The notes beneath the pieces were generated by a model that was not told where the DNA came from, searched no databases, and saw only the letters and a list, made by a program, of their open reading frames with translations. From a virus (Duplodnaviria; Heunggongvirae; Uroviricota; Caudoviricetes), in the IMG/VR virus record IMGVR_UViG_2531839662_000011: a stretch of DNA of 23,270 bases; one strand, given 5' to 3'. How positions within the stretch are numbered: the first letter of the stretch is position 1; every line of letters begins with the position of its first letter. Made by a program: the position numbers and the translations under genes. Below, in pieces: positions 1-22,891 of the stretch.

Positions 1-102
1 ACACCCCGTCAACCTCACTCGTCTGTTACTAATCCTCAACCATCGCCAGACCCCAACACCGTTTCTGCGAGCTAACAGAATTTTTGCCTTACGGTTTTTC
101 AT
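1..102 (-). CDS. small basic protein, 3' end beyond window (MKNRKAKILLARRNGVGVWRWL...)
   Basis: ATG at 102-100 overlaps stop of upstream ORF (ATGA); open to window edge; shares a 20-bp start region with the ORF at 99-275. Confidence 0.3.
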   Translation of the reverse strand, partial: MKNRKAKILLARRNGVGVWRWLRISNRRVRLTGC

Positions 103-275
103 CTTACTGCGTACCCTTTCTTCCGCCTGTTCTGTGACGCGGTGGGTTTACGATTTACGGTAAAAGCCACCTGACCAAATGGATGGAGTACAGCTATCTT
201 ATGGTTGCTGATAACCAGCGACACCATACACACAGGTCGCTGTAAAAGAAGTCGTATTGCTTTACGGTTTTTCAT
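99..275 (-). CDS. small basic protein, 58 aa (MKNRKAIRLLLQRPV...)
   Basis: ATG at 275-273 preceded by GGAGAA; stop TGA 101-99; below ORF-track size cutoff, translated by hand. Confidence 0.35.
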   Translation of the reverse strand: MKNRKAIRLLLQRPVCMVSLVISNHKIAVLHPFGQVAFTVNRKPTASQNRRKKGYAVR

Positions 276-279
276 CGTT

Positions 280-468
280 TCATTCTCCTGTATTTACTAC
301 TGACTCTGTACTGTCAGCCCTGCGGCGCTCCTGAAGTTCCAGCATTGCGGCCCGGAAATCCTGCCACCATTCCTCATCGGCAACGGGGGTGTTCCGCTCC
401 AGCACCTTGTCCGCATCGGCAATCAGTCTGGTCAGACTCTTATCGCTTATTCTGGTTTGCTGGTTCAC
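280..468 (-). CDS. hypothetical early protein, 62 aa
   Basis: GTG start overlapping upstream stop (GTGA), AGGAGG 8 nt upstream. Confidence 0.45.
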   Translation of the reverse strand: MNQQTRISDKSLTRLIADADKVLERNTPVADEEWWQDFRAAMLELQERRRADSTESVVNTGE

Positions 469-755
469 TGCGCCGCCTCCTGCTCATTTTTTTCACTCCG
501 GTATACCAAAATCACGACATCTCCCCGGGTAATTACGCGTGCCGGGTCGCCCTGTTGCATACGGTCAATATCAAAAGCGTCATTAAACGCATTTAGTGCC
601 TTCACGCGCTTGTCTTTGCAGCGACGTTTTTCACATTGTTTAAAGACCGAAGAAATCAACCACCTGAATGACATAAAAGTGATATAGCCATAACCGATAA
701 GCGCCAGACCTGTATTCATGGCTACATCTATCGTTATCGTTTTATCAATGCTCAT
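465..755 (-). CDS. hypothetical early protein, 96 aa, hydrophobic N-terminal segment
   Basis: ATG at 755-753 with AGGAGG upstream; N-terminus NTGLALIGYGYITFMSFRWLISSVF looks membrane-spanning. Confidence 0.5.
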   Translation of the reverse strand: MSIDKTITIDVAMNTGLALIGYGYITFMSFRWLISSVFKQCEKRRCKDKRVKALNAFNDAFDIDRMQQGDPARVITRGDVVILVYRSEKNEQEAAQ

Positions 756-828
756 CGTGTCGCCTCCTGTTTTGCCACTTTAAACGCCCGTAACATCGGG
801 ACCGTTTTACCGGTGATGACGGTTCTCA

Positions 829-975
829 TTAAAAGACCTCCACCGCTCTGATGGTGTACTTCAGGGGCCACAAACAGCGCCGCATCCACAACCCGGCAAT
901 AGCGCGGAACTCCCAGAACCAGCATGTAACAATGATTTTTGCGGTGACTCCGTAGTCATAAAATTCAATATTCAT
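829..975 (-). CDS. small ORF, 48 aa
   Basis: ATG 975-973 with AAGAAGG upstream; hand translation; stop TAA 831-829. Confidence 0.25.
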   Translation of the reverse strand: MNIEFYDYGVTAKIIVTCWFWEFRAIAGLWMRRCLWPLKYTIRAVEVF

Positions 976-1062
976 TTGCAGTTAAACCTTCTTTTGTGAC
1001 GTTCTACGGCGGCTTTCATGGCGTTGTGCACGGTTCTTTTAATAATCCGGCGTCCCGCACTG

Positions 1063-1197
1063 TCATAGAACCGCCACCGGGAACCCCGGATATTTGGGAA
1101 ACTCAACCGCCGCGCTACCGTCATTCATCCTGTATTCGTGGCGTTCTCCGGGAGGCTGGTATATTGCTTCGGTAACACTGAGAAGTTTAAAAGCCAT
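1063..1197 (-). CDS. small ORF, 44 aa
   Basis: ATG 1197-1195 preceded by GGGGAGGG; starts 3 nt after stop of 201-aa gene. Confidence 0.3.
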   Translation of the reverse strand: MAFKLLSVTEAIYQPPGERHEYRMNDGSAAVEFPKYPGFPVAVL

Positions 1198-1199
1198 CG

Positions 1200-1805
1200 T
1201 TACACCCTCCCCAGTGCCAGCGGTCTGTTGCTCTGACCATTAACCCCCTGATGCAGTCTGGCGTTTTTCCTGGCGATAAAACCCGCAGTAGCGGCAAACT
1301 CTGCACCCCGACACGCTTTAGCTGTGCGCATATCCCCGTCGCGCAGTCCCTTAGTGCTGTGCAGGTTCTTTCTGTAAAGCTCAAGGCGGCTTTTTTCTTC
1401 CGGGGAGACGTCATACACCGCAATGACATCACGGGCACCAAAGACCCAGCCTTCGCAGAACTGGTCGCCACGGGCTACCCGCGTGGACGGACCGCAACGT
1501 TTGCAGTGTTTATCCTGATATTTCTTGCGCTCTGCCATCATCTGACGGGAAAGCACATCAAACGCGTAAGCCGCGATTTCCGGGCGGCTGTCAGAGCCAT
1601 AAAAACGCACGTGACGTTTGAGTGAACCAGAAGCCCGGTACTCACCGGAGATGTAACACTCGACACCGAAGGCTTTACAGACCAGGTCACACAGGATGTG
1701 CATATAACGCGGCGGCGTACTGGCATCACTCGGCGCACCCGCGCTGGCAGCTTCCTGAATGTCGAACAATTCAGCGTCGTTTTCGCTGATACCATGCTGG
1801 CGCAT
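1200..1805 (-). CDS. hypothetical protein, 201 aa, contains HCKRCG...FCEGW Cys cluster
   Basis: Long ORF with ATG start in early-operon orientation; protein-like composition; no family recognised. Confidence 0.55.
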   Translation of the reverse strand: MRQHGISENDAELFDIQEAASAGAPSDASTPPRYMHILCDLVCKAFGVECYISGEYRASGSLKRHVRFYGSDSRPEIAAYAFDVLSRQMMAERKKYQDKHCKRCGPSTRVARGDQFCEGWVFGARDVIAVYDVSPEEKSRLELYRKNLHSTKGLRDGDMRTAKACRGAEFAATAGFIARKNARLHQGVNGQSNRPLALGRV

Positions 1806-1922
1806 ATAAACCTGGGCTTTTGCAATAGCGTTAGCGGCTTCTTCCGGGCTTGATGTTCCTCTGGCAAGGCGTAACAGTTTTTGATTTTGGCAATGTATTT
1901 ATCTTTCATGGTCGTCTGAACC

Positions 1923-2105
1923 TCAGCATCCTGAATTCTGAATTACGCAACTTCCGGCACGGCCATCAGGAACGTGGGGAGTTCGTTCTGGCTGCGGTAC
2001 TGAATGAACATCTGCTGTCGATTGAGAACTGGTCGCAAGACGATTAAAACAAACGATTGTCAGATTAATTTCGCGGGCGAACTTTTTTTGCTTAGCGATA
2101 TTCAT
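1923..2105 (-). CDS. hypothetical small protein, 60 aa
   Basis: ATG 2105-2103 immediately downstream of hairpin repeat copy A; weak SD. Confidence 0.3.
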   Translation of the reverse strand: MNIAKQKKFAREINLTIVCFNRLATSSQSTADVHSVPQPERTPHVPDGRAGSCVIQNSGC

Positions 2106-2111
2106 AAATAA

Positions 2112-2185
2112 ACTCTCTCTGATTCAGGCGTAAGCCAGCCCCGGCGGGTTTACGCCATATACCAATAAAATTAAAAACAGACTTA
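2112..2185. repeat. direct repeat copy A (~70 bp) with hairpin GGCGTAA(2127-2133)/TTACGCC(2150-2156) and AT-rich tail
   Basis: Near-identical to 2744-2811: core ATTCAGGCGTAAGCCAGCCC..GGGTTTACGCC then AATAA-ATTAAAAACA. Confidence 0.8.
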
Positions 2186-2731
2186 TTAACTACGACGTTC
2201 AGCTTTCCGGTAATGACGGTCAACAGACTTTACGAACGCCTTCACATCACGGGCAATCGAATCCAGCGGATAATATTCATCCAGCAGTTCCATTCCACTG
2301 AATCGAATCTGAAAAAAATCAGGCTTATCTTTATATGACTCCACCAGGTCAATAAACCGCAACTGACGCGGGAGGGATTCCTGCACACCTGAGATAGTGA
2401 GCAAATCATCTTCAAGGATGTATGCGAGGTCTTCCATATCCTTACAGTCAGACAGCATGGATATTCTTGTCAGTATGTTCCGTGTGGCGATATACAGCGC
2501 TGCTGTGTCATTCGCCATCATGGCGAACAAATCCCCCTGAATATAAGCCCCCTTACTGGCCATAGCATTCCCGGCAATCTGTGCATCAAGTACCACATAC
2601 ATAAAATCGGCAGGTGCTCCCAGATGGCCCAGCAATGATGACGCCCATAACGTTACATTGGTTAACTTCTCAGATGAACGGGTAGCAAAACCTTCAGGAG
2701 TAACAATAAAATCCCAGACTTTATCTTTCAT
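2186..2731 (-). CDS. hypothetical protein, 181 aa, candidate accessory gene bracketed by direct repeats
   Basis: ATG 2731-2729 (track start 2737 is TTG), AAGGGGA upstream; stop TAA 2188-2186; no family recognised. Confidence 0.6.
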   Translation of the reverse strand: MKDKVWDFIVTPEGFATRSSEKLTNVTLWASSLLGHLGAPADFMYVVLDAQIAGNAMASKGAYIQGDLFAMMANDTAALYIATRNILTRISMLSDCKDMEDLAYILEDDLLTISGVQESLPRQLRFIDLVESYKDKPDFFQIRFSGMELLDEYYPLDSIARDVKAFVKSVDRHYRKAERRS

Positions 2732-2743
2732 ATACAAATCCCC

Positions 2744-2811
2744 TTAATTCAGGCGTAAGCCAGCCCGACGGGTTTACGCCTGTTTTAAATAACAATTAAA
2801 AACAAATTAAA
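2744..2811. repeat. direct repeat copy B with hairpin GGCGTAA(2752-2758)/TTACGCC(2774-2780)
   Basis: Fills the gap between stop of 2812-3003 gene and start of the 181-aa gene; matches copy A. Confidence 0.8.
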
Positions 2812-3003
2812 TTAATGCGGTGCTTTCAGTGTTTCGACTTTTACGAAATAAGGCTCGACATTAATTTCAACCACACAACCACATTTAAAATCTCTGGCCG
2901 GTGCAACAGTTTTTACCACCCGACCACCACGCACCGCCTGATGTGCAATGTGCATGAAACGAGTACCAGGCGGATATAACTGATTAAAGCGTTTCGCGTT
3001 CAT
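2812..3003 (-). CDS. hypothetical small protein, 63 aa
   Basis: In-frame ATG at 3003-3001 within track ORF 2812-3129; 20-nt overlap with upstream gene. Confidence 0.4.
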   Translation of the reverse strand: MNAKRFNQLYPPGTRFMHIAHQAVRGGRVVKTVAPARDFKCGCVVEINVEPYFVKVETLKAPH

Positions 3004-3217
3004 GAATCGGCTTCCATCCTTTCTGGTGAGCATTAGCACAGAACTGTGCCCGGTGTTCTGCCCAGATGCGGCGCAGAGTACTACACGGGCTTTGCGCTGC
3101 CTTACGCCACAGCTTTTCAGCCTCGGCATAATCGCCGCGTTGTTCTGCTCTGGACACGCCCAGCGAATACGCCGCGCAACTATTTCCGGCTCTGTACTCT
3201 TTGATATCCTGATGCAT
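2984..3217 (-). CDS. hypothetical small protein, 77 aa
   Basis: In-frame ATG 3217-3215 directly after stop (3221-3219) of upstream 214-aa gene. Confidence 0.45.
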   Translation of the reverse strand: MHQDIKEYRAGNSCAAYSLGVSRAEQRGDYAEAEKLWRKAAQSPCSTLRRIWAEHRAQFCANAHQKGWKPIHERETL

Positions 3218-3218
3218 G

Positions 3219-3863
3219 TTAAACCCCTGCAATATCAAGCGGGATTGCGCGGTATTCATCAGAATCACCGACGCGCTCATACACGCGGATATAGCTTCTG
3301 CTGCCAACCACCTGGACGGCTTCACCAATCAGTTTCATGGCGTTATCCCAGCGTTCCTCCGTAATATCGAGACGACGCAGAGCCAGAACGCGCCCGGTGT
3401 TAATGTTGCCTTCCTTGTCCGTGCTGAATGCCTCGCTGATGATGGCTTTAATTTCAGGGCGTGCACCTTCCGTCCAGTCAGCCAGGCAGTCATCAATCAG
3501 TGCCTTCGCGGTCTGAATGCGTTCATCAAGCGCGATACGGTCCTGCATGGCGCGCTGAATCTTGTAACGCCCGTCAAAGCTGTACAGCGTGATATTCCCT
3601 TTTTTACCGCCTTTCACAGCGCCGTATTTTTTCGCCGACAGGTCAATAAACGCCTGAATATCACCAAAGGCACGTAGTTTCAGTTCACGCAGTGAGGCAG
3701 AGGCAGCAATCACCATCTCCACAAGCTCACCGACCAGCTGCTCACGGTCGCGGTCAATATCTTTGATAAGGCTTTCAGGTGTCATTACGCCACGGGCATC
3801 CACCCAGTAACCTTCAGGTGCTTGAGTTTTCGTGTATTGCTTAACTTTATTTTCAGTCGTCAT
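3219..3863 (-). CDS. conserved Mu-like early protein, 214 aa (possibly DUF3164-like; label from memory)
   Basis: ATG 3863-3861 with GAGGT upstream; protein-like ORF downstream of B; not Gam-like by eye. Confidence 0.6.
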   Translation of the reverse strand: MTTENKVKQYTKTQAPEGYWVDARGVMTPESLIKDIDRDREQLVGELVEMVIAASASLRELKLRAFGDIQAFIDLSAKKYGAVKGGKKGNITLYSFDGRYKIQRAMQDRIALDERIQTAKALIDDCLADWTEGARPEIKAIISEAFSTDKEGNINTGRVLALRRLDITEERWDNAMKLIGEAVQVVGSRSYIRVYERVGDSDEYRAIPLDIAGV

Positions 3864-3892
3864 AATTAAATTACCTCAGTGATATTTACAGA

Positions 3893-4108
3893 TTAATTTG
3901 TGTTATGTGCGCAGGGCGCAGCGTTTTCAGAAAAAATATTCACGCCGTTGTAGTCATTTCTCAGTGCTTCCTTGATAACATCATGCAATCCTGTTGCCAC
4001 CTGAAACTCCCTTTCAGAAGCGCCATCCTTCAAATAACTTCCTGTAATCTGGGTTAAAACCCTGCCTTTTTCATTGGTATAGATAATTACTTCCAACTTA
4101 ACCGCCAT
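3893..4108 (-). CDS. hypothetical small protein, 71 aa
   Basis: ATG 4108-4106 with AAGGAG 6 nt upstream (track start 4129 is TTG). Confidence 0.45.
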   Translation of the reverse strand: MAVKLEVIIYTNEKGRVLTQITGSYLKDGASEREFQVATGLHDVIKEALRNDYNGVNIFSENAAPCAHNTN

Positions 4109-4289
4109 GTTTTTCTCCTTTGAAATCAAACGATTTAAAAATAATTTCGTTCATAAAACAGTGAGTTTTTATGATAATGTCGGAAACCTGCTCTCCCGTG
4201 ACATCAGGCGGCAACTGATACGTCGCGACGGCTTTCTCCGGTTTACCTGGCCTGTCCAGGCTGAAAGTTAATTCAAGCTCCAGTGACAT
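4098..4289 (-). CDS. hypothetical small protein, 63 aa
   Basis: ATG 4289-4287 with GAGGGA upstream. Confidence 0.45.
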   Translation of the reverse strand: MSLELELTFSLDRPGKPEKAVATYQLPPDVTGEQVSDIIIKTHCFMNEIIFKSFDFKGEKHGG

Positions 4290-4299
4290 ATTTCATCCC

Positions 4300-4551
4300 T
4301 CAATGCATTTGTGTTTCTTGAGGAATATACGGACATCCCTGTGCCAGTTGTTTCACGTAGTCATGGTAGATTTGCAGATCAAGCCGTTCATTTCCGTGTT
4401 TCTCCTTCAGAATCGTACAAATAGCGCCAACAGTCCCCAGAGTTCTTGCCGCTTCTTCGAGTGTGGCATTGTCGCCATTTTCCACCCGAATAAGGTTATG
4501 GCACTGGTTATTACCCAGGTCGGTAAATACTATTGTTAATTTCACGCTCAC
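4300..4551 (-). CDS. hypothetical small protein, 83 aa
   Basis: GTG start 4551-4549 with GAGGAA 7 nt upstream. Confidence 0.45.
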   Translation of the reverse strand: MSVKLTIVFTDLGNNQCHNLIRVENGDNATLEEAARTLGTVGAICTILKEKHGNERLDLQIYHDYVKQLAQGCPYIPQETQMH

Positions 4552-4566
4552 TTTTAATTCCTCGTT

Positions 4567-4806
4567 TTATTGCCATACGACGGTACAGCCGTCGATACAG
4601 GACGTTTTAACCACACGACGCAGGCCGCTGAATGTCTGGATGATTTCCGTTACCGGCCATACAGGACCACCCACGGGCGGGCAGGCATAAACCACAGGTA
4701 AACGGTGATGCTGCCCCGTTACACGACCGCCAGTGGTGTGGATGGCCACACGGGCACGGGAACGGACGGCGTTAATGGTCTGCTTGTCCATCGTCTTGCT
4801 CTCCAT
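4567..4806 (-). CDS. hypothetical small protein, 79 aa, translationally coupled to B
   Basis: ATG 4806-4804 overlaps B stop TGA 4808-4806 (ATGA). Confidence 0.5.
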   Translation of the reverse strand: MESKTMDKQTINAVRSRARVAIHTTGGRVTGQHHRLPVVYACPPVGGPVWPVTEIIQTFSGLRRVVKTSCIDGCTVVWQ

Positions 4807-5699
4807 CAGTGAATTAACATTTCTGAATATTTATCAATGGCCTGCACACTGACCGGTGCATCGCTGATATCACAAATCCGGTACACACCGCGCGCCAGCT
4901 TGAACAGACGACGGGCATTACCCAGCGAACGTGTGTAAAGTGCCTCACCAATTTCCGGGTCCGCCGCTTCCGGCATCATGTCTGTGGCAATCTTGTTAAA
5001 ATCTTCCTGCGTCAGCGTATCGCCCAGGTTAAGCGCCAGCGCCACGCGGCTGTATAATTGAGCGAACTCACCACAACGGCCCTTAAGGTTAATCAGAAGG
5101 TGAGGCATACCCGCCAGGACAATCCCGATACCCGCTTTGTCATGCAGACGGCGCAATACCTCCAGTGCACGATAGGGGAGCAGTTCAGCCTCATCCACCA
5201 TCAGCAGACGACCTGACCCACGCAGTTCACGCACACAGGCATCAATCTTCTCGCGAATATCGCCGTGAACCTTTACCCCAAGCTGACGGCACAGTTCATC
5301 GAGTAACTTTCTGGCCGTATAGCCAATATCGGCTTCAATGAGCACTACATCCCGGTTTCTGGCGGCATATTCACTCAGAATCATGCTTTTACCCAGACCC
5401 GCCGCGCCATACAGCACGCAAATATCACACTCCAGATGGGCGTAGGTCAGCACCTCCAGCCCTTTGGCGGCCATGCCGGTGGTGACAAATCGCACTTTAA
5501 TACGGCGGTTGTTTTCCTTTTCCCATTCACGGGTCACAAAGGCAGAAATACGTTCTTCAATATCAGCCATATCGCCCTGATATTTGCCCTGCAAATACTG
5601 GTTGATAACGGCGCTGCTACGACCAATAGCACGGGCAACGTGGGTCTGCGTAAAGCCGCGACGGGCCATTACGTCATTTAATTGCGTAATTAAACTCAT
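4806..5699 (-). CDS. B: MuB-like DNA transposition ATPase (AAA+), 297 aa
   Basis: Walker A LYGAAGLGKS, Walker B LLMVDEAE, N-terminal HTH; immediately downstream of transposase as in Mu. Confidence 0.9.
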   Translation of the reverse strand: MSLITQLNDVMARRGFTQTHVARAIGRSSAVINQYLQGKYQGDMADIEERISAFVTREWEKENNRRIKVRFVTTGMAAKGLEVLTYAHLECDICVLYGAAGLGKSMILSEYAARNRDVVLIEADIGYTARKLLDELCRQLGVKVHGDIREKIDACVRELRGSGRLLMVDEAELLPYRALEVLRRLHDKAGIGIVLAGMPHLLINLKGRCGEFAQLYSRVALALNLGDTLTQEDFNKIATDMMPEAADPEIGEALYTRSLGNARRLFKLARGVYRICDISDAPVSVQAIDKYSEMLIH

Positions 5700-5717
5700 A
5701 ATTAAATACCTTTTAAA

Positions 5718-7532
5718 TTAACGATTATTTGTGCCGTTTTTCTTTAAATTGCGCTCACGGTCAGACACGAATAAATAAAGTTCTTCTTTTTCCTTTTTCT
5801 CCTGACGTTCCAGTCCATATCCCAGATTAAAGTCAGGCTTCTGCGTAATGGCCGGGGTAAGCTCGCGTTTAGCCTCTTCGATTTTCTGCGTGGCCCGTGC
5901 AATGCGGCCCCTGACGCGTTTCTCCAGTTTTTGTTCGATAACTGGTTTAGCGAAGGCATCAACCTTGTTACCGTTCCAGATGGCATCGCAGATATAAGAG
6001 CCATCAGCCCGCCGGACAATGACGCTGTTTGCATCATGAATATCGTAACTGACCCTGACTTCATTCCCGTGCTCTGCGGCCAGCTCATACGAGTAATAAA
6101 TATTGTTGAATAACTGAATTTCCCCGCGAAATGTTTTGCGCGTCACTTCCGGTCTGAACATTTCATGCAGTTCTTCCGGCGACAGGAAATCAATTTCAAC
6201 ATTCTGCTCTTTTATCAGTTTCCGGCGATACGCTGCCGGGCTGTAATATTCGCCATCCTCTTTGCGGGGTAGGCTGCTGTGTGGCCGGTTGTTATAGCGT
6301 CTGACCTCCAGCTCTATGGCGGCCATCAGTTGCTCAAAGGTAGGGATTTCATCCCTCGCCTTAACCTGCCGTTTTGTCAGCTCTTTCCCTTTGTGGGTGG
6401 CCTTAATGGCTGACTGCATAATCCGTTGCTGCATCATTACGGTTTCCTTGTCTGCATCCCTTGCGCAGTACGTCTGGAAACTCAGAGCCACGTCTTTGGG
6501 TATTCCTTTGTTTGCCCGTTCAATCACCCCGCGCCCCTGCGGGTTACCTGGTATCCCCGTGTGATGTTCCACACCCAGCCGGGGCAGAATCCCGGTAATA
6601 TCGGCATCAAGCACCCGGTTTTTTTCACCGCCCCCGTTATCGGAGTAATAAATCAGCGGTATCCCGTGCTGCGCCATGCCGTAACGTAACGCATCAGCAA
6701 CGGCTATCACGTTCTCCGACAGGGACAGTGACCAGCCCACAACAAAGCGTTGCCCCGCATCCATAACCAGCGTCACTTCTGGCCGGAAAATATTGCCGGT
6801 CAGGGGGTTAAACGCGGTCATTTTCATACAGTGACCATCCCCGACCCATACCGCATTAACCGGTAATGATGTCCAGTCGCGCCGCACAAAGGGATTGAGC
6901 GAACGCCAGGCTGAACCGGTGGAGCGGAAACGCTCTTTAACAATCACCGGGACGCTGCTTAACACCCGTCTTACTGCGTGAACTGAAGGCAGTGCCGCCA
7001 GCATTCCCGCATCGTTCGCGTGTTTTTCATGCCACCAGGCTGAAAACTCGCGATACGCATATTCAACGGTCGGGCGCTTCCATGAGCGATAGAACATAAA
7101 GAAATCGCTCAGCCACCAGACCTGCTCCCACGGTGTTCCCTTATGATGATCGGGAGCCAGTAACGCCAGTAACTGATTGGCATCACCGCGCGCCATCAGC
7201 CAGGCGGAATACCATTCCTGTAAACTCCCTGTACTGACGCCAGTCCGTTTACCCTGTCGGGCATTAGCAGTATTACCTGCCACAATAACACGCTCGGGCA
7301 AAGCCTCCTGGCGGATACCATCAACGATGTGTTTTATCGCCGCCGTCCTGGACATTCCTGCGTATTCACGCAGTTTATGCACTTCGGTAGCCAGCAATAT
7401 CCGCGCATCAGCGATGGCCCTTTGCTTGTCGGTCAGTGCCTGGACTTCGCGTAATGCCAGTTCCGGGCATTTGACCATCACCTCCAGTTCATCGCGAACG
7501 GTGACGTTTTTAACTGCCTTCTGCTCAACCAC
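5718..7532 (-). CDS. A: MuA-like DDE transposase, 604-codon ORF lacking the N-terminal domain because of an upstream in-frame TAG
   Basis: Long ORF with Mu transposase-like core (WVGDGHCMKM...DAGQRFVVGW...); track start 7532 is GTG with no SD; same frame as 7590-7760 fragment. Confidence 0.9.
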   Translation of the reverse strand: MVEQKAVKNVTVRDELEVMVKCPELALREVQALTDKQRAIADARILLATEVHKLREYAGMSRTAAIKHIVDGIRQEALPERVIVAGNTANARQGKRTGVSTGSLQEWYSAWLMARGDANQLLALLAPDHHKGTPWEQVWWLSDFFMFYRSWKRPTVEYAYREFSAWWHEKHANDAGMLAALPSVHAVRRVLSSVPVIVKERFRSTGSAWRSLNPFVRRDWTSLPVNAVWVGDGHCMKMTAFNPLTGNIFRPEVTLVMDAGQRFVVGWSLSLSENVIAVADALRYGMAQHGIPLIYYSDNGGGEKNRVLDADITGILPRLGVEHHTGIPGNPQGRGVIERANKGIPKDVALSFQTYCARDADKETVMMQQRIMQSAIKATHKGKELTKRQVKARDEIPTFEQLMAAIELEVRRYNNRPHSSLPRKEDGEYYSPAAYRRKLIKEQNVEIDFLSPEELHEMFRPEVTRKTFRGEIQLFNNIYYSYELAAEHGNEVRVSYDIHDANSVIVRRADGSYICDAIWNGNKVDAFAKPVIEQKLEKRVRGRIARATQKIEEAKRELTPAITQKPDFNLGYGLERQEKKEKEELYLFVSDRERNLKKNGTNNR

Positions 7533-7589
7533 TGCGGGCAGTTGCGTATCTTCCAGGACCTGATGGGTCAGGCGCTTACGTAAAACTTT

Positions 7590-7760
7590 CTACGCTTCAG
7601 CGGGCAGGCAGTCGATGTGATACTCGAATGCTTTTGTGCCTTCACGCTTGCGCTTCCATTCCGGGTGCGTCTCTGTGATCCGATTGAGCGTCCAGCGCAC
7701 CCCCTGAACTGTACCGGGCAAACCAGGAAGACCGGCCAGCTCATTGGCTGGATAAAACAT
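7590..7760 (-). pseudogene. A: MuA N-terminal DNA-binding domain fragment, 56 codons then TAG (7592-7590), in frame with transposase ORF
   Basis: ATG 7760-7758 overlaps ner stop (TAATG); MFYPANELAGLPGLPGTVQGVRW...KAFEYHIDCLPAEA* resembles Mu A N-terminus (ANLPGLPKT...KGGKAIEY...LPVEAK). Confidence 0.7.
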
Positions 7761-7996
7761 TACGCCGCCTTACTGGCATACCGGCTTGGCCAGATCTCCG
7801 CAGGTTCCACACCAATAGCATCGGCTATGATGCGTTCATATTTAGGGCATGAGCGATACAGTGCATTTTTTAAAGAGTCTTTTTTTAGACCAGCGCGTTC
7901 AGAAAGTTCACGCAATGTAAAACCTTTGGTGTGCACAGCGGCAACGATGTACTCGCGGTGCCAGTCTTTGTTCATTACTTCATTTCTAACCATCAT
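7760..7996 (-). CDS. ner: Ner-like DNA-binding regulator, 78 aa
   Basis: ATG 7996-7994 (track ORF extends upstream without support); ...IADAIGVEPAEIWPSRYASK matches Mu Ner C-terminus ...IANALETKPEVIWPSRY. Confidence 0.85.
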   Translation of the reverse strand: MMVRNEVMNKDWHREYIVAAVHTKGFTLRELSERAGLKKDSLKNALYRSCPKYERIIADAIGVEPAEIWPSRYASKAA

Positions 7997-8164
7997 TAGG
8001 TTACCCTTAAAAGTTATCCGTGCGGATAACACCGCCGTGTTATCCCTTCGGATATAAGTATTGATCCACAAATAGAAAATTACAAGCTTTCTTTTCTTAT
8101 TTTGGTGAAAAGAAAGTCTTTTTGTAGAAAGATGTTGTAAATCAATAGATTGCGAGAAAAGAAA
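7997..8164. promoter_or_regulatory. divergent promoter/operator region between ner and repressor with two palindromic operator-like sites
   Basis: GTTATCCG-TG-CGGATAAC at 8013-8030 and TGTTATCCCTTCGGATATAA at ~8037-8056 share the GTTATCC half-site. Confidence 0.5.
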
Positions 8165-8812
8165 ATGAGTAAACAAACCGCCGATGATTTTTCCTTTTCT
8201 CAGAATAGAAAAGAAAGCATTCAGGACAGAATCAAGCAACTGGTTGGCACTAGGAGTCTGCGTAAAGCTACCTCAGACTGGGGGTTGCCGTACTCGACCA
8301 TAAATAACTACTTTGAGAAAGGCACCACTCCCGGCCTAAATGTGGTCGCTACGATAGCAAAATTAGAGAATGTATCACTGGAATGGTTGGTCTACGGTGA
8401 GAGCGAGTGCGATCCAATAATAGAAAAAAAGGTACCTACAGAAGACGTTAACCGCCCAAACACAAGTATTGTCGATGAAATACTAAGGCGAGCTACTCCA
8501 GAAGATAGAGAACGTCTTATTGATATGCTGTGTTGTATTGGCATCAAAGGCGTCTTGGAACGCTTACAACAACCCACCAGGCAAGCTACGCAGGCCGACA
8601 GCGACCTGGACGAACAGGAGAATGCCATCAGAAGCCTAAACATCAGGGAATCGCTTAAAGACGCTATTTGCATGGCATTGGCTGGTAATGAAGAAACTGA
8701 CAAAGAGATTTTGCGACGCATCGAATCTCGTGCACGGACTGGGTCGCCAGGTGGTCAGACCGTTGCCACGCCGGAGCAAGAAACGAAGCCTGTAAGCAAA
8801 AAATCAGCATGA
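8165..8812 (+). CDS. prophage repressor, Xre/CI-type HTH, 215 aa
   Basis: ATG 8165 (track start 8150 is TTG); HTH signature SLRKATSDWGLPYSTINNYFEKG...LEWLVYG; divergent from ner as Mu c is. Confidence 0.7.
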   Translation: MSKQTADDFSFSQNRKESIQDRIKQLVGTRSLRKATSDWGLPYSTINNYFEKGTTPGLNVVATIAKLENVSLEWLVYGESECDPIIEKKVPTEDVNRPNTSIVDEILRRATPEDRERLIDMLCCIGIKGVLERLQQPTRQATQADSDLDEQENAIRSLNIRESLKDAICMALAGNEETDKEILRRIESRARTGSPGGQTVATPEQETKPVSKKSA

Positions 8813-9050
8813 ACGCCTACTGCCTGGTGGGCGCATGCTGCCAACTAACTAGCGACATCCACAACAAGACCAATACAGAAGACGGATAAGAAAGGAACAA
8901 ATCAAGCAAGGTTAAAACGGGTTTTAAAATCTTTTAAAAGGCGATCGCTTTCCTGCACCACCAGATCAAAGTAGTCCAGAATAAAGCGTAAAAAAAGGCA
9001 CTTTTGGTCATTTCTTTCAAAACGATCCAGAATCGGTGAAATCTCTCACA
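8813..9050 (-). other. candidate Mu-like left end (attL region)
   Basis: - strand reads 5'-TGTGAGAGATTTCACCGATTC... from 9050 inward, resembling Mu end TGTATTGATTCAC...; tail-fibre homology of flanking phage stops here. Confidence 0.4.
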
Positions 9051-9399
9051 TCCCGCACCACTCAAGGCTTGCAGGTTCGTCCAGGCTGCTCGGACTCAGT
9101 CCAGAATTGATCACCACCCCACACATCCCCAGTTCACGAAGGGTTTTACCGGGGTATGATTTACAGTCAATCACAATATCCCCGCTGATGAAGCCCTCCT
9201 CCACCGCACCGTCGGAAAAGGGTTCCTGCCCGAATTCGCCGTACAACGATGTCATTGCTGCCATTTCATCCGGCGTGGATGGCAATGCACGCCCGCCCCC
9301 GTCACCAAGCAGAACATGCCGGACGGTCACGGTTTGCCCGTTCTGATATGCTGCTTCAATTTCTGCAGCGCCGGACGTTGTCAGAATCAGTCCATTCAT
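9046..9399 (-). pseudogene. H: tail-fibre gene (P2 gpH / Mu gpS type), N-terminal 117 codons only
   Basis: N-terminus ...LTTSGAAEIEAA...VLLGDGGG...LRELG resembles P2 H ITTAGAAKLAAA...AVGDGGG...MRELG; stop TGA 9048-9046 falls inside Mu-like end. Confidence 0.65.
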
Positions 9400-9986
9400 A
9401 CACCTGCCTCACTCTGCCCGCCTGTGGGCACTGTCTTTGTTGTCACACCGGTACTTCTGATTTTTTCTGTCGCCATCACATAGCCGTAACCAAATCCACG
9501 CCCTGTGCTGTTCCCGTAAACGTGAATACTGAACCAGCTGCGCAGATTTTTGGCACGGAGCACCGCATGCTTCAGATCCTGATGATCATTCATCAGCACC
9601 GGTAAATCTTTCTGCTCCACGTTCAGACGGAAGGTATACGGCTCCCCGGGTGGGGTCTGCTCATACCACTCAACAATCTGCGACCGGAAGGGACTGTCAG
9701 CCAGCGATGCCATCAGCGCCGCTTTAGTCCCTCTGTGGCGGTGGATGTATGCAGCACGTTTTATCGCAGACCGTTTTTCCGCCTCCGTCCAGTGTTCATT
9801 CCAGGTGTCCACCGCCATTTCCCAGGCCAGCCATGGCAGCAATTCAGCAGGACATAAATCGGGATTTTTGACATAGCGGATCAGACATACTGCGATTTCC
9901 GCCAGCATATCACCGGCGGTACTGTCCACCACCCGCTCTGCCCGGCTGGCACTGACCGGCAGTATGCTCCTGATATCGTCATTCAT
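9396..9986 (-). CDS. I: baseplate/tail protein, P2 gpI-like, 196 aa
   Basis: NPDLCPAELLPWLAWEMAVDTWNEHW matches P2 I NPDTCPANLLPWLAWAFSVDRWDEKW; ATG 9986-9984. Confidence 0.85.
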   Translation of the reverse strand: MNDDIRSILPVSASRAERVVDSTAGDMLAEIAVCLIRYVKNPDLCPAELLPWLAWEMAVDTWNEHWTEAEKRSAIKRAAYIHRHRGTKAALMASLADSPFRSQIVEWYEQTPPGEPYTFRLNVEQKDLPVLMNDHQDLKHAVLRAKNLRSWFSIHVYGNSTGRGFGYGYVMATEKIRSTGVTTKTVPTGGQSEAGV

Positions 9987-10893
9987 CAGTTGTCTCCACC
10001 TTATTCAGCGTTACCTTGCGGCACCACGGTGCCTGCCCCATCGCAGGAACGATATCACTGCCCGGAGAGGTCAGATTCACCGTAATCACCCCGGTCTGGT
10101 GAAGGGCACCATCCATGCCAGAACGGGATGCCACCGAGCCAATCAGGTGGACGCTGTCAGTGTATAACTGCAGCGCCTTGCGGGCATTTGCCATAACCAG
10201 TTCACCATCCAGTCCGTAGGGAATATGAATATCCGCCACCACATCGTAGGGAATAATTTCTGCCGTCCGGACACTGACAAAATCCGTCAGGGGACGGGTT
10301 TCATCATCACAGACTGATGCTGCCACCTTATCCAGCAGGGGTTGTGATGCAGTGCCATTTCCGGACCGGGATAACACATAAAGAAAAACACGCCCTTCCT
10401 GTGAATGCGTTTCCGGCCCGTAAGCCTTCACATCCAGCACATCAGGATCAGCACTTTGCGCAAAATAGTGGTACGCATTTTTCGCGCCGGCGGTGCTCAG
10501 CCGTGCCCATGACAACTGGATACGTTCGCGAAAAGCGTCATCATCTTCATACACCGCAGGCGTGGGCGGAATGGTGCTGTCATCTGCCGGGGTAATCACC
10601 AGACGCTGCACCTGAAAATTCGCACCAATCTGATCCAGGTCGTTCCTCCGGGCACTCGCAAGCAATACACCCCGGACAGCATCATTGACCTGCTGGCGCA
10701 TCAGCGCCACGCGAAAAGCCAGCGCCTCTGCCCATTTATACGCCGGATCGGATTCCACCAGGGCCGAAAACAACGTGTCCAGCTCCTGATACTTCGTCAC
10801 TATCTGAGTGACCAGCACAGCAGTGTCCGGCACCTCCACCGCATCCGGTACCGGTATCGCAGACAGATCAATAATTGCCTGAGACGTTGCCAA
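9979..10893 (-). CDS. J: baseplate assembly protein, P2 gpJ-like, 304 aa
   Basis: IIDLSAIPVPDAVE...LVITPADDSTIPPTPAV matches P2 J; TTG start with GAGGAG upstream. Confidence 0.9.
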   Translation of the reverse strand: MATSQAIIDLSAIPVPDAVEVPDTAVLVTQIVTKYQELDTLFSALVESDPAYKWAEALAFRVALMRQQVNDAVRGVLLASARRNDLDQIGANFQVQRLVITPADDSTIPPTPAVYEDDDAFRERIQLSWARLSTAGAKNAYHYFAQSADPDVLDVKAYGPETHSQEGRVFLYVLSRSGNGTASQPLLDKVAASVCDDETRPLTDFVSVRTAEIIPYDVVADIHIPYGLDGELVMANARKALQLYTDSVHLIGSVASRSGMDGALHQTGVITVNLTSPGSDIVPAMGQAPWCRKVTLNKVETTDE

Positions 10894-11224
10894 TTTTTAT
10901 CTCCTCGAGTCGAATCGTATCCTGAGTTTCGTTATTCACCCCGACAAGCGTCAGCCACGCGCTTCCTTCTCCTGTCCACGTCACTTCCACCCGCCGGAGA
11001 GTCAGGCGGGGTTCCCAGCGTTCAAGGGCGGTTACCGTTTCGCGAACAATTCTCACCCGCGTGAAATCATCCTGTGGGTTATCAAGCAGACTGAAAAGTC
11101 TGCTGCCGTATTCCCTGAGCAGGACCCGGCTGCCGGCCGGTGTTGACAAAATATCAGTGACGGACTGGCGCAGATGTTCGTTACCGTGCAGATATCTGCC
11201 GGTGGCTGAATCAATACCAATCAT
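10868..11224 (-). CDS. W: baseplate protein, P2 gpW-like (gp25-like), 118 aa
   Basis: Size, position between V and J, GPW/gp25-like sequence; ATG 11224-11222. Confidence 0.85.
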   Translation of the reverse strand: MIGIDSATGRYLHGNEHLRQSVTDILSTPAGSRVLLREYGSRLFSLLDNPQDDFTRVRIVRETVTALERWEPRLTLRRVEVTWTGEGSAWLTLVGVNNETQDTIRLEEIKIGNVSGNY

Positions 11225-11257
11225 GTTGTTTATTCCGGAAAAAGAACTGAAAGGAGA

Positions 11258-11881
11258 TTACATTTGCTGACCAGGCTGTCCGGTGCTGCCACCACTGTCG
11301 CCCCGGTGATTGTGACCGTTATAGACAATTCTGATTTGACTCATCGTTCCGTGATAATCAGAAACCTCACCACCGACCATCAGATCCGCCTTAACCACCG
11401 CCTCAGCATTCATGGTTGCTTTACCCTGTACGGTCAGGGTATCTGTGATTTCTACCGGACCGTCCAGGGTTCCCCTGCCGGTAATTTTATAGCTGCCGCC
11501 TTCAGCCAGCGTGATGGACAGGGCATTAGCCTGACGGTCGTAACGGATTTCCGTTCCGGTATCAAACAAAATAACATGTTCGTATTCACTGCCCTCAGGG
11601 ACAGGAATGGCGTCAATATTGGCCCCCGGATACACCCGACCGTTACGCAAATCGCCCGCCTCCGATATCACTGTAACGGCATCTCCGGGAGCCGGGTAAT
11701 TACTGACCTGCATGTAGCGCCCGGACTGTACCTGAATCCAGGGCAACGGAGGCGAAAGCACATCCCCGATATCCACCCGAACCATCACCGGGCTACCCGG
11801 GATCACCTCGTCCACCACGCCGCGACGGACCATGTCCGCCACCCTGCGGCGTAACTCTGCCACTTCATCTGCCAGACTCAT
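11258..11881 (-). CDS. V: baseplate spike protein, P2 gpV-like, 207 aa
   Basis: C-terminus YNGHNHRGDSGGSTGQP matches P2 V HTHKHPGDSGGTTGSP; in-frame ATG 11881-11879 (track ORF over-extended). Confidence 0.85.
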   Translation of the reverse strand: MSLADEVAELRRRVADMVRRGVVDEVIPGSPVMVRVDIGDVLSPPLPWIQVQSGRYMQVSNYPAPGDAVTVISEAGDLRNGRVYPGANIDAIPVPEGSEYEHVILFDTGTEIRYDRQANALSITLAEGGSYKITGRGTLDGPVEITDTLTVQGKATMNAEAVVKADLMVGGEVSDYHGTMSQIRIVYNGHNHRGDSGGSTGQPGQQM

Positions 11882-12428
11882 CACCGGTGCCCTCTGTTTT
11901 CCAGATAAGACGATAATCCCGCTCATGTTTCTTGCCGGTTTCCGGAGCTTTCCCCAGCCAGACTTCCTGTAAAGGCGCACCAGCCGGAACCTCGAACGGA
12001 TCTTCTCCGACAGGAATATCCTGTTCAAAAGAAACGCGGAAAACGATGTAGTCATCCAGAAGCCGGTCGAAGGTATCCACCTCAGCATCAATAAAAACAG
12101 CCGGATCAACGTTATCCAGCCCGAACGTGGCCCCCTCAATCCAGTCAGATAAATCCATCGCCAGACAACGGGCAAAAATCTGCGGTTTTGGCACGTTTTC
12201 CGTCTTCCCGGCCCGGTCTGTCACCACAAACAGATCACATTTCAGCGTGACCCGCGTCTGCCCGTCGGCAAACTGAGCCTTGTCCCAGCCCGGTACATCC
12301 ACAAACACGGCAGGCGTCACCAGTTGCGTCACTTTTTCCGGATACTCATCGGCATCTTCCACCCAGGGAATTTGTTTCAGACTGTCAATCACCGCCTGAT
12401 GCCAGGCGCCCATCATCAATGGCTCCAT
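11865..12428 (-). CDS. hypothetical tail-associated protein, 187 aa
   Basis: ATG 12428-12426 overlapping upstream stop; lies between Z-like gene and baseplate V. Confidence 0.5.
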   Translation of the reverse strand: MEPLMMGAWHQAVIDSLKQIPWVEDADEYPEKVTQLVTPAVFVDVPGWDKAQFADGQTRVTLKCDLFVVTDRAGKTENVPKPQIFARCLAMDLSDWIEGATFGLDNVDPAVFIDAEVDTFDRLLDDYIVFRVSFEQDIPVGEDPFEVPAGAPLQEVWLGKAPETGKKHERDYRLIWKTEGTGDESGR

Positions 12429-13006
12429 CACTCCAGCCCCTTAAATACCCGGAATTTCAGTTCATGCTCAAAATTTTTCAGGATCAGTGCTTCCGCATCC
12501 GGAAAAACAAAATCCTCTATACGGTTCAGCATGGCTTCATAAATATCAATTTCCGCTTCACGCACCCTCCGTCGTCCGGATGCCTGTCGGATCAGTATCG
12601 TTTTCCTTTTTGATATACGTCCGTTACGATTTTCCGCTTCGAACTGGTTGATAAAGGCATCATCCGTTGACCAGGTGGTGACAGGCAGGGATTCCCCGGC
12701 AGGTTTAAAACTGATCTCCCGAGCCTTCCTGCGGCTGGAAGCTGGTGCAAAACGCCCCCGCTCATCGCGCAACTGATGGCGTTCGCCGCGTCGTCCCCCA
12801 CTGATGCGTCCGCGCAGATCGCGTACTTTGATGGCGTTCAGACCGAACCATACCTTCGCCTCATCAAACTCATCACCGTTACGACGAATGATAAAATTAT
12901 GCAGAACACGCTTTTTGATCATTTTCTGACTGCGTGGCGCAACCTGTTTTTTAAACTCTGCCAGGGCCTTCATCCGCAGTGCAGACGCGGCTCTTTTCAG
13001 CGCCAC
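12428..13006 (-). CDS. basic tail-completion protein, possibly lambda Z-like, 192 aa
   Basis: Same length as lambda Z, very basic, follows FII; GTG start; N-terminal resemblance from memory only. Confidence 0.45.
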   Translation of the reverse strand: MALKRAASALRMKALAEFKKQVAPRSQKMIKKRVLHNFIIRRNGDEFDEAKVWFGLNAIKVRDLRGRISGGRRGERHQLRDERGRFAPASSRRKAREISFKPAGESLPVTTWSTDDAFINQFEAENRNGRISKRKTILIRQASGRRRVREAEIDIYEAMLNRIEDFVFPDAEALILKNFEHELKFRVFKGLE

Positions 13007-13129
13007 GCCCAGGCTTTACGGATCTGACTTTTTGACCCACCCAGTTTAGCGATAATTTTCAGCACCTCATCTTCATCAATATCGACAACGAGGTTTCGTG
13101 CCAGCCGTCGCTGCCGGGCACTGCTTCGT

Positions 13130-13534
13130 TCATGCTCTCTGACTGCCATAACGTTTACTCGGTCGTTCCGGTGCAGCAGGTGTATTTCTCCCGGGCTCTC
13201 CACGCGCAAGGGTGATGGTAATCACCCCCTGACCCGCAGCGCCTGACTCATCCCAGCCGGGATCGACTACCTGATAGGGTTCGCCGTGGATCATGACCCT
13301 GTCATATTTTTTCAGACCGGCGGCCCATGCGCTCCGGGTAAATAACACGGGCGCAGTATCACGAATTTCGCCGCTGCCAGTGTTCATCCCGGTGTTATCT
13401 GCCGGGGCATCAAAAACGGCACGGATTTTTCTTTCCGTGCCGCCCGGATATATGCTGATTTCCGTCCCCATCGTATCCAGGATGATGTCATCCGCATCAC
13501 TCATGGCCTGATCGAACAGATTATCGAACATCAT
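13130..13534 (-). CDS. FII: head-tail connector protein, lambda gpFII-like
   Basis: MFDNLFDQAMSDADD matches lambda FII MADFDNLFDAAIARADE; ATG 13534 overlaps FI stop. Confidence 0.8.
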   Translation of the reverse strand: MMFDNLFDQAMSDADDIILDTMGTEISIYPGGTERKIRAVFDAPADNTGMNTGSGEIRDTAPVLFTRSAWAAGLKKYDRVMIHGEPYQVVDPGWDESGAAGQGVITITLARGEPGRNTPAAPERPSKRYGSQRA

Positions 13535-13899
13535 CACTCCCGGATTTTTTCTGCCAGACCGTCTGCCAGCAACGCGGGAACTGTGGCTTCATTAACCAGC
13601 ACAACACTGGAGGCCCGGGCAAACATCAACATTTTTCCCGTCACAGCATCACAGGCTGGCATATGCGCCGTTTTCAGCATACGCACCCGGGCGAGTCCCT
13701 GCTCAGAATGCATTCCGTCGCCGGATGCATCGTTGCCCACCTCTTCCTTCCCCGTCTCCTCCCCATCGAATCCAGCGGCCTCCTCCTCCCATTCCGCCAG
13801 ACGCTGCTCAAGATCGGCTTTTGAACCTGAAATATCTGCTTCACGCCCCAGAATCACTGCCAGTTCCTGCAAACGTTCAGTCATCTGCTCTTTTGTCAT
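13534..13899 (-). CDS. FI: DNA-packaging accessory protein, lambda gpFI-like, 121 aa
   Basis: In-frame ATG 13899-13897 with GGGAGAG SD; follows E as in lambda (track ORF over-extended into E). Confidence 0.65.
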   Translation of the reverse strand: MTKEQMTERLQELAVILGREADISGSKADLEQRLAEWEEEAAGFDGEETGKEEVGNDASGDGMHSEQGLARVRMLKTAHMPACDAVTGKMLMFARASSVVLVNEATVPALLADGLAEKIRE

Positions 13900-13916
13900 C
13901 ACATCTCTCCCGTGCG

Positions 13917-13944
13917 CTAAAGAAAAAGGCGGGAATATCCCGCC
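13917..13944 (-). terminator. intrinsic terminator/attenuator just after major capsid gene
   Basis: Hairpin GGCGGGA-ATA-TCCCGCC (13928-13944) followed on - strand by TTTTTCTTT, 6 nt after E stop. Confidence 0.4.
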
Positions 13945-13949
13945 CTGTC

Positions 13950-14978: not shown

Positions 14979-15001
14979 AATTTATATTCCTTCAGAAACA
15001 C

Positions 15002-15030
15002 AAACGGGCCGCATCGCGACCCGTTTTTTC
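15002..15030. other. stem-loop in D-E intergenic region
   Basis: AAACGGG-(11 nt)-CCCGTTT with T-run on + side and U-rich tract on - side. Confidence 0.3.
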
Positions 15031-15047
15031 AGTTAATCACTTCACCA

Positions 15048-15383
15048 TCAGGCGTGGCTGATGGCACTTCCCACAAATGCGTTGGCTTTTTTCACCGCAT
15101 CCACCGAACCAGGCCAGACCAGCGACTCAGTGGCAAACGTACCGCTTTTGTAGTACGTCAGCATGGGCTCGGTCCCGGCAAGCGCCAGAGCCAGCACACC
15201 CACAGCCGTTCCGGCTTTCTGACCATCCCAGACAACCAGTTTTCCGGTGGCGTCATCCACCATCAGTGGCGTCAGTGCAGGTGTGGCAGCACTGATACCA
15301 CTGGTGGCTGTTGCGGTATGCGCCGGATCGCTTCCGGCAAAAATGCGCGCATCTGCACGCTTTTCCGTGGTGGTTTTAATCAT
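15048..15383 (-). CDS. D: head decoration protein, lambda gpD-like, 111 aa
   Basis: GSDPAHTATA...TPLM...KLVVWDG...YKSGTF matches lambda D; ATG with AGGAGG upstream. Confidence 0.85.
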   Translation of the reverse strand: MIKTTTEKRADARIFAGSDPAHTATATSGISAATPALTPLMVDDATGKLVVWDGQKAGTAVGVLALALAGTEPMLTYYKSGTFATESLVWPGSVDAVKKANAFVGSAISHA

Positions 15384-15421
15384 TTTTCAGCCTCCTGATT
15401 TATCTGAATTCCGGATATCGC

Positions 15422-18805: not shown

Positions 18806-18808
18806 TCT

Positions 18809-21440: not shown

Positions 21441-21546
21441 TTCAGGTTCCAGAAAGGACCCGTTGAAATGGGAGTAATTATCATTTACACGCTCTAACAC
21501 CTGCATTATCGCAACCCCTCACACAGAAGGGCTGCTGTAATGCCTG

Positions 21547-22293: not shown

Positions 22294-22294
22294 A

Positions 22295-22821: not shown

Positions 22822-22848
22822 ACGTACCTCCGTTCTTTCGTTTTTTGA

Positions 22849-22874: not shown

Positions 22875-22891
22875 CCTGTATGTTTTGCAAG

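Follow-up and report, generated by a model that had tools for sequence, protein, structure and literature searches.

Two copies of a short hairpin repeat flank a gene for a 181-residue protein in the early region of a Mu-like prophage of Escherichia coli. The locus raises the question of whether this gene is an acquired accessory cassette, and what the repeated hairpins on either side of it do. The whole stretch of DNA analysed here (the window, 23,270 bp) is 99.9% identical to the chromosome of E. coli UMNF18. The relevant genes are found within positions 1–8000, all on the minus strand, and constitute the early operon of the prophage, which also holds several small genes and which runs on to GemA, Mor, lysis and head genes in the UMNF18 annotation. 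The Mu transposase C-terminal domain, the MuB-like AAA ATPase, GemA and Mor confirm the Mu-like early setting proposed in a preliminary description of this DNA. The features are, from high to low coordinates:

5718–7532 (as listed), minus strand: Mu-type transposase, with Mu-transpos_C and rve domains
4806–5699, minus strand: MuB-like AAA ATPase
3219–3863, minus strand: DUF3164 gene
2984–3217, minus strand: ANR-family gene
2812–3003, minus strand: conserved 63-aa early gene (phrog_5591, function not assigned); the first hairpin is directly downstream of it in relatives
2781–2811, minus strand: AT-rich trailer of the 63-aa gene, TTTAATTTGTTTTTAATTGTTATTTAAAACA, which stays with the upstream gene whichever gene comes next
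2752–2780, minus strand: hairpin copy 1, GGCGTAAACCCGTCGGGCTGGCTTACGCC, in which the 7-bp basal stem is invariant and the upper stem weaker
2732–2751, minus strand: TGAAT pentanucleotide (2747–2751) and leader of the 181-aa gene, with Shine-Dalgarno AAGGGGA at 2739–2745; the leader stays with the downstream gene
2186–2731, minus strand: 181-aa orphan gene, the cargo of the variable cassette (phrog_7741; 181 codons, ATG start)
2157–2185, minus strand: AT-rich trailer of the 181-aa gene, TAAGTCTGTTTTTAATTTTATTGGTATAT, which accompanies this gene in every case
2127–2156, minus strand: hairpin copy 2, GGCGTAAACCCGCCGGGGCTGGCTTACGCC
2106–2126, minus strand: TGAAT (2122–2126) and leader of the 60-codon ORF, with a GAGAGAG purine tract
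1923–2105, minus strand: orf60, a putative 60-codon ORF, present or absent jointly with the MKDKY allele of the DUF2786 gene
1200–1909, minus strand: DUF2786/DUF7168 gene, which forms the conserved right flank of the variable site and is interrupted in the window by a 1-nt indel

The pattern GGCGTAA-N(8-24)-TTACGCC matches the window exactly twice, at 2127–2156 and 2752–2780, while none is expected by chance and none was found in 100 dinucleotide-preserving shuffles of the window. The arms are separated by 15 or 16 nt and TGAAT follows in both copies. Each of the two 80-nt gaps that flank the minus-strand ORF (2731 to 2186) holds one hairpin in the same layout, which on the sense (minus) strand reads stop codon, an AT-rich trailer of about 30 nt, hairpin, TGAAT, 2–4 nt, Shine-Dalgarno sequence and ATG. 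Within the hairpin and TGAAT core the two copies are identical at 33 of 35 positions, with one substitution and one 1-nt indel, and upstream of the core both include a 16-nt stretch, TGTTTTTAATT(G)TTATT. Across the full ~85 nt of the gaps 63 of 86 alignment columns are identical (~73%). The repeats of ~70 bp reported earlier in both gaps are hence real, non-random elements, but to call them near-identical was an overstatement. Folding of the window's hairpins alone gave −12 to −15 kcal/mol; the whole-gap folds were no more stable than shuffles (z of −0.8 and −1.2), and it is the hairpin alone that stands out.

In order to follow the gene through related prophages, we used the 58 of 5,426 complete E. 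coli genomes that include this Mu-like prophage region, sorted them by the length of their record matched to window positions 1700–3200, and inspected the sequences of eight variants directly. A span of 1502 or 1491 bp denotes presence of the gene, 1953 bp an extra DUF7448 cassette and 686 bp no cassette. The 181-aa gene is carried by about 27 of the 58 genomes and missing from about 30, with one ambiguous. Carriers have it alone, with the additional DUF7448 cassette upstream (+451 bp), or with other genes after it; it was found at the same locus in every case, and the most divergent allele (84% identity) occupies the same site. In 15 of the roughly 30 genomes without the gene, the loss is exact: 624/625 bp are missing (878 bp versus 1502) and one hybrid hairpin is left. 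The single element of strain E423 is such a hybrid, leading from the trailer of the 63-aa gene through the hairpin into the orf60 leader. Relatives in which the 63-aa gene directly precedes orf60 or DUF2786 were also found. By this comparison the 181-aa gene is an acquired, strain-variable and dispensable accessory cassette, as had been proposed, since related prophages occur with and without the segment between single repeat copies. Neither universal conservation together with ordinary composition nor a match to a known core function was found.

Pairwise BLAST of the window against seven relatives placed every homology breakpoint inside the hairpin and TGAAT core. At the DUF7448 junction, the left homology stops at +65 from the stop codon of the 63-aa gene and the right homology resumes at +57, which leaves a 9-nt overlap, CGCCTGAAT. 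The flanks are mosaic, and one pair of genomes is 88.7% identical on the left and 99.5% on the right. Comparison of the loci shows gain, loss and reassortment of cassettes through recombination within the hairpin and TGAAT core.

A scan of viral contigs with the exact pattern yielded 45 prophage loci. A similar scan of a genome collection gave 58 matches, most of them chance occurrences in unrelated phyla, and those in Morganella, Citrobacter and Cedecea were kept. A Kluyvera match was regarded as chance because its AT-rich interior is different and no gene starts after its TGAAT. The element directly follows a homolog of the 63-aa gene in Klebsiella phage ST405-OXA48phi1.1 (MK388859) and in Pseudomonas phage VW-6B (MF975721), the latter with TAAAT in place of TGAAT; a search of phage Mu and its close relatives for the element found no match. 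In all 53 of 53 loci the hairpin lies at most 70–95 nt after the 63-aa homolog, whether or not a cassette is present and with protein identity as low as 34%. The copy behind the 63-aa gene is the only one in the B and C lineages, where the next genes are tightly packed or overlapping. The E. coli-type lineage includes zero to three cassettes between this hairpin and DUF2786, in at least 10 arrangements.

No cassette in the related loci lacks a ribosome-binding leader, an AT-rich trailer or a 3' hairpin of its own. The cargo is the 181-aa gene, DUF7448, a 125-aa gene, an 86-aa gene, orf60, or a chimera that begins like the 181-aa gene, with its leader and first six codons, and continues as an unrelated 121-aa ORF. 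The AT-rich trailer always moves with the upstream gene, as does the hairpin type, and the leader always moves with the downstream gene, which makes leader, ORF, trailer and 3' hairpin the natural unit. The hairpins associated with DUF7448 are of types of their own, namely D (GGCGCAGGTAAACAGGTCTGCGCC), F (AGCGCAGGTCGGCAGGCCTGCGCC) and E (GGCGTAAATCGTCAGGGGATTGTTTACGCC, followed by AGATT), and one copy of the element has TGATT as its pentanucleotide. Genes of at least 11 unrelated families begin 13–18 nt after the TGAAT, and the ~35 nt of hairpin plus TGAAT are the only sequence common to the cassettes.

These results bear on the idea that the gene was inserted with duplication of a flanking element, which is too simple: every cassette brings its own 3' hairpin, the DUF7448 cassette has hairpins of different sequence (types D, E and F), and the hairpin behind the 63-aa gene is conserved in 53 of 53 loci with or without a cassette. 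They also bear on the possibility that the repeat has no function and is the passive remnant of a tandem duplication or insertion event. The presence of two copies only in the window, and of a 181-aa gene without assigned function, would fit such a remnant, but the core is identical in prophages of five genera (Escherichia, Citrobacter, Klebsiella, Morganella and Cedecea) and in phage VW-6B, whose surrounding non-coding sequence has diverged beyond alignment, and we consider this explanation very unlikely.

Even where the neighbouring protein retains as little as 34% identity, the basal stem GGCGTAA/TTACGCC and the TGAAT do not vary. Each of the 19 different hairpin sequences (19/19) folds, at −9 to −18 kcal/mol. 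In the D and F types the basal stem is kept through two compensatory pairs (2 of 7 pairs) and the upper stems differ. The element measures 24–31 nt and the spacer between its arms varies from 10 to 17 nt, for which reason a duplex operator for a dimeric regulator was rejected. The upper stem and loop include a partly conserved CGYCRGGG motif. The hairpin is 7–9 nt from the next Shine-Dalgarno sequence, which its fold leaves free, and 18–23 nt from the start codon. Fold energies of sense and antisense strands give no consistent strand preference, the A type favouring antisense and the B, E and F types sense. The element was found in 59 of 5,426 E. coli genomes, at one to four copies each and in this prophage family only; the 58 genomes with the prophage region cover all but one of these 59. 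A REP/BIME, ERIC, MITE/IS or other host repeat was rejected on account of this copy number and restriction.

A promoter or terminator was searched for in both copies. A sigma-70 scan of 2112–2185 and 2744–2811 found no site, and the best −35/−10 matches in 14 different trailers reached at most 8 of 12 positions, several trailers having none, which is no better than in shuffled trailers. An intrinsic-terminator scan of both copies found no site either. On the sense strand the hairpin is followed by TGAAT and the Shine-Dalgarno sequence, and a partial T-run is present on the antisense strand of some copies only; a Rho-independent terminator was rejected as no U-run directly follows the hairpin on the sense strand. 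Rfam returned nothing at gathering score; its sole match, to Lnt RNA and on the other strand, scored 27 bits where 55 are needed (E of 0.2). RNase III processing sites comprise about 20 bp or more of double-stranded RNA, and a site of the T7 early-region type was rejected because the hairpins have 11–13 pairs including mismatches. GGA loops of the CsrA type, examined by eye, are inconsistent across variants and are not claimed, and neither is an RNase E site (RN|WUU) at UGA|AU, also considered by eye. The hairpin sequence was found in no paper of the library searched, the sole match being an unrelated yeast primer.

Morons, as conceived by Juhala and Hendrix for lambdoid phages, carry their own promoter and terminator and usually deviate in composition. 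The 181-aa gene resembles them as an extra, dispensable gene whose two neighbours are next to each other in related phages, with a function that is unassigned or related to the host. It differs in having no promoter or terminator of its own and a GC content within the range of the small early genes. At 45.6% its GC is below the window mean of 51.9% (10.6th percentile of 546-bp windows), and the 63-aa gene has 44.8% and three other small early genes 41–45%. The impression of a gene more AT-rich than its neighbours thus holds weakly, against the window mean, and fails against the small early genes, which have the same or lower GC. With no sigma-70 promoter or intrinsic terminator alongside and a composition ordinary for the early region, the term moron used in the preliminary description does not apply in its strict sense.

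The closest known system is that of the PeSL (promoter-early stem-loop) cassettes of the T4-like phages phi1 and RB49 (Arbiol et al. 2010, PMC2839356; Comeau et al. 2014, PMC4122927), which flank orphan genes and mediate indels and mini-circles. They are found in the hyperplastic regions of T4-like phages and include a strong sigma-70 consensus promoter in the motif (PMC2839356). In both systems a short conserved intergenic motif leads from an AT-rich tract that contains the stop codon through a GC-rich stem-loop to a Shine-Dalgarno sequence and a start codon; both motifs flank orphan genes in a plastic region, and in both, indels or replacements between close relatives end in the motif. Unlike PeSL, the element here has no sigma-70 promoter, occupies one site in one to four copies rather than about 50 per genome, has an invariant stem sequence where that of PeSL is merely G/C-rich, and belongs to a temperate transposable phage whose cassettes are within a single long early operon.

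It could nevertheless be a regulatory cassette of the PeSL type, in which the AT-rich tract and hairpin would be promoter and attenuator, so that each cassette would be transcribed separately and shielded from upstream. Besides the matching layout with its orphan genes and indel sites, −10-like hexamers (TAAAAT, AATAAT) close several trailers immediately ahead of the hairpin, and strong termination by PeSL stem-loops has been reported from a lacZ reporter (PMC2839356). However, the promoter and terminator scans speak against it, and a start about 7 nt past such a −10 would land in the 5' arm and ruin the hairpin in the RNA. We regard a PeSL-type regulatory cassette as rather unlikely.

The reading that we favour, and consider probable though well short of certain, combines a cassette at a recombination hot spot with an element that acts as a putative intercistronic stem-loop. 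The hot spot is found immediately after the conserved 63-aa gene, within the early (transposase) operon that a family of enterobacterial Mu-like prophages shares. Each cassette is self-contained and consists of a ribosome-binding leader, an ORF, an AT-rich trailer and a GC-rich hairpin whose last bases are CGCC, with TGAAT next to it. As the cassettes bring along neither promoter nor terminator, they would be expressed from the early promoter, which would place the hairpin inside the polycistronic early mRNA. There, at the 3' end of a cistron, it may protect and delimit the upstream message while keeping the next ribosome-binding site free. It would act as message punctuation: a protective 3' stem-loop, a processing landmark beside an AU-rich tract and an insulator of the ribosome-binding site. 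The early promoter could thus drive any captured ORF that has no promoter or terminator itself. The element is best read as PeSL-like but promoter-less, a recombination joint that doubles as a putative intercistronic stem-loop. What it would do in RNA or DNA we infer. The alternative named in the preliminary description, in which structures for RNA processing or attenuation recur ahead of genes, would be part of this explanation.

Precedents for such punctuation are the REP stabilisers in malEFG and 5' stem-loops such as that of ompA. Like the REP of malE-malF, the element is a stable intercistronic hairpin that lacks a U-run and is positioned to shield the upstream 3' end; it differs from REP stabilisers in being confined to this prophage group and having no similarity to the REP consensus.

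Two observations fit poorly with a simple RNA view. The basal stem and TGAAT are more invariant than an RNA element needs to be if only its structure counts, and junctions between A-type and D-type hairpins share only the 9 nt of CGCCTGAAT, which is short for ordinary homologous recombination. The invariance points to possible sequence-specific recognition, or to homogenisation through frequent exchange. Invariant core and 9-nt junctions together leave room for a site recognised by a protein, either an RNA operator or a DNA recombination site.

Were the hairpin an RNA operator, it would be bound by a conserved protein of the phage, such as the 63-aa product, or by one of the host, and that protein would govern translation or decay of the next cistron; the action of Mu Com on mom mRNA is a model for this. 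The invariant, specific sequence, with its partly conserved CGYCRGGG in the upper stem and loop, would suit such binding, and so would the fixed 18–23 nt to the start codon and the strict adjacency of 63-aa gene and hairpin, which may however be plain synteny. The Shine-Dalgarno sequence is outside the hairpin and the loop sequence differs in the D, E and F hairpins. The 63-aa protein has a low-confidence model (pLDDT 66.6) without a significant structural match, its best Foldseek matches in the PDB being generic SH3/Tudor-like barrels (best E of 0.7), which is uninformative as to an RNA-binding fold. An operator of this kind seems to us improbable.

Folded single-stranded DNA sites are known from integron attC, IS200/IS605 and REP/RAYT hairpins. 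By analogy, a dedicated phage or host enzyme might cut and join the hairpin and TGAAT, as folded single-stranded DNA or as duplex, which would make the locus one of cassette capture. Consistent with this are the invariance of the basal stem and 3' pentanucleotide across very divergent phages, a spacer of 10–17 nt that fits a hairpin better than a duplex dimer site, the position of the hairpin at the 3' end of each cassette, as in an ORF with its attC, and the joining of unlike hairpins through CGCCTGAAT only. The TGATT copy may be a hybrid of TGAAT and AGATT, but a point mutation explains it equally well. The prophage annotation lists the Mu transposase but no integrase, HUH or tyrosine recombinase; the element does not match the attC core sites RYYYAAC/GTTRRRY and has half the minimum size of attC; and the junction between the six codons and the 121-aa ORF in the chimera lies within the ORF and looks like an ordinary homology-driven exchange. 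We consider a protein-recognised recombination site unlikely. A bolder form of it, in which hairpin and TGAAT would be the dedicated capture site of Mu-like phages, integron-like without an integrase of known kind, with an enzyme that joins cassettes at the pentanucleotide, appears decidedly unlikely; a phage or host enzyme would then read the folded hairpin and keep loading orphan genes into the early operon.

The likeness to integron cassettes is considerable, as both are arrays in which ORFs without promoters each precede an imperfect hairpin, conserved in its outer arms and variable at its centre, with combinatorial content and one upstream promoter (putative in the present case). The differences are that the whole-prophage RefSeq annotation includes no integrase gene, with the Mu transposase as the only recombinase, that the arms GGCGTAA/TTACGCC match each R''/R' core site at 5 of 7 positions (by inspection), and that the hairpin is ~30 nt long versus 57–141 nt for attC. 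The locus resembles an integron array in logic and fails every defining test of one.

Regions of genomic plasticity were described in Pseudomonas Mu-like phages (Cazares et al. 2014, PMC4378225). As at the present site, they hold accessory ORFs (0–6) at fixed positions between conserved genes, mostly in the left early arm, but those phages are not related to this prophage at the DNA level. The full text of that paper includes none of the terms 'hairpin', 'stem-loop', 'intergenic' or 'palindrom'. In these widespread enterobacterial Mu-like prophages, the locus provides an entry rule for accessory genes that is defined by sequence: behind the 63-aa gene, between copies of GGCGTAA...TTACGCC-TGAAT. 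The hairpin could serve as a handle in genomes and metagenomes to search for early-expressed orphan cassettes, candidates for host-takeover, exclusion or anti-defence genes. Modular shuffling at stem-loops, known from lytic T4-like phages, is extended to temperate transposable phages in a promoter-less form, and the unusually invariant stem raises the testable question of what reads it.

The cargo in the window encodes a poorly characterized protein, and the earlier statement that it has no recognisable homolog agrees with searches of Pfam, NCBIfam, PADLOC and the PDB and with an exhaustive HMMER search. Pfam and NCBIfam gave nothing credible, the only NCBIfam line being NusA_Cterm (E of 0.11, 12.6 bits); the PADLOC anti-phage defence HMMs included no family at E ≤ 1, and a PDB profile search gave no match. 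The anti-defence or exclusion role raised in the preliminary description is speculation. In PHROGs the protein matches phrog_7741 only, a family of unassigned function. The 21 clusters that a word-indexed search returned come without exception from E. coli and are at least 84% identical. Among 1.84 billion representatives, exhaustive searching with HMMER recovered only the family itself, one fragment and two weak matches, one of which is an unrelated 445-aa protein. The other, a MucBP repeat protein (Lactobacillus-type), is spurious: identity is 22%, its five repeats inflate the score, and a mucin-binding repeat protein is set against an all-helical query. The AlphaFold2 model is all-helical and of low confidence (pLDDT 47). 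From its sequence relatives, the protein is an orphan restricted to E. coli, with no credible remote relative in these searches. Its early position suggests a non-essential early gene of host or phage interaction as a candidate role, and as a clean orphan found in about half of the carriers, it is an easy target for knock-in and knock-out phenotyping.

The hairpin element of the Mu-like early operon is partly conserved in its interior. In an alignment of all variants (A3), the motif CGYCRGGG extends over the 5′ arm of the upper stem and into the loop. It is carried by hairpin types A, B and E and by the variants of the Pseudomonas phage VW-6B and of Cedecea, among which the opposite, 3′ arm of that stem is variable.

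In loci L046 and L110 (E. coli TUM1881), the gene that follows the homolog of the 181-aa gene is a 121-aa open reading frame. This frame matches the 181-aa gene in its hairpin, its leader and its six initial codons (MKDKVW) and is unrelated to it thereafter. Here the recombination junction is located inside the coding sequence and not in the hairpin. At another locus, L017, the gap preceding the 86-aa gene includes an A-type hairpin followed by TGATT in place of TGAAT; the E-type hairpin next to it has AGATT at this position. The TGATT may reflect a crossover within the pentanucleotide, or it may be a simple point mutation.

A weakly similar sequence is found upstream of an early gene in the P2-like phages PSP3 (NC_005340, 25650–25690; L114) and ENT90, in the order GGCGTAAACCCGCCGGGTATTC...GCCTAAAT, SD, ATG. 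The similarity to the hairpin element is not significant in these two phages (E-values of 0.3–4); the sequence could be a chance resemblance or a decayed relative of the element.

Two further features of the early region are:

1200–1909, minus strand: DUF2786/DUF7168 gene, as two overlapping open reading frames (1538–1909 and 1200–1805)
1923–2105, minus strand: putatively coding 60-codon open reading frame

The first is split in the window by a 1-nt indel relative to the RefSeq record of E. coli UMNF18, which has a single CDS of 236 aa; the indel may be a genuine frameshift or may stem from a sequencing error. The second stays open over precisely 60 codons in 11 distinct sequences, in which the third-position excess is weak (9:5:5). 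It is absent from the UMNF18 annotation, and the annotations of E2348/69 and STEC346 have a pipeline-called 72-aa open reading frame on the opposite strand in its place.

The repressor end of the Mu-like prophage (~8165–8812) adjoins tail, baseplate and head genes of another prophage:

Within ~9046–23270: tail protein I, baseplate J/W/V, FI, major capsid and decoration protein

This adjacency suggests that the Mu-like phage integrated into a prophage that was already resident. In records NZ_OZ547097.1 and NZ_OZ547049.1 (~249 kb), two matches to the Mu-like prophage region and the hairpin were counted as plasmid-borne, and therefore large plasmids also carry the Mu-like element.
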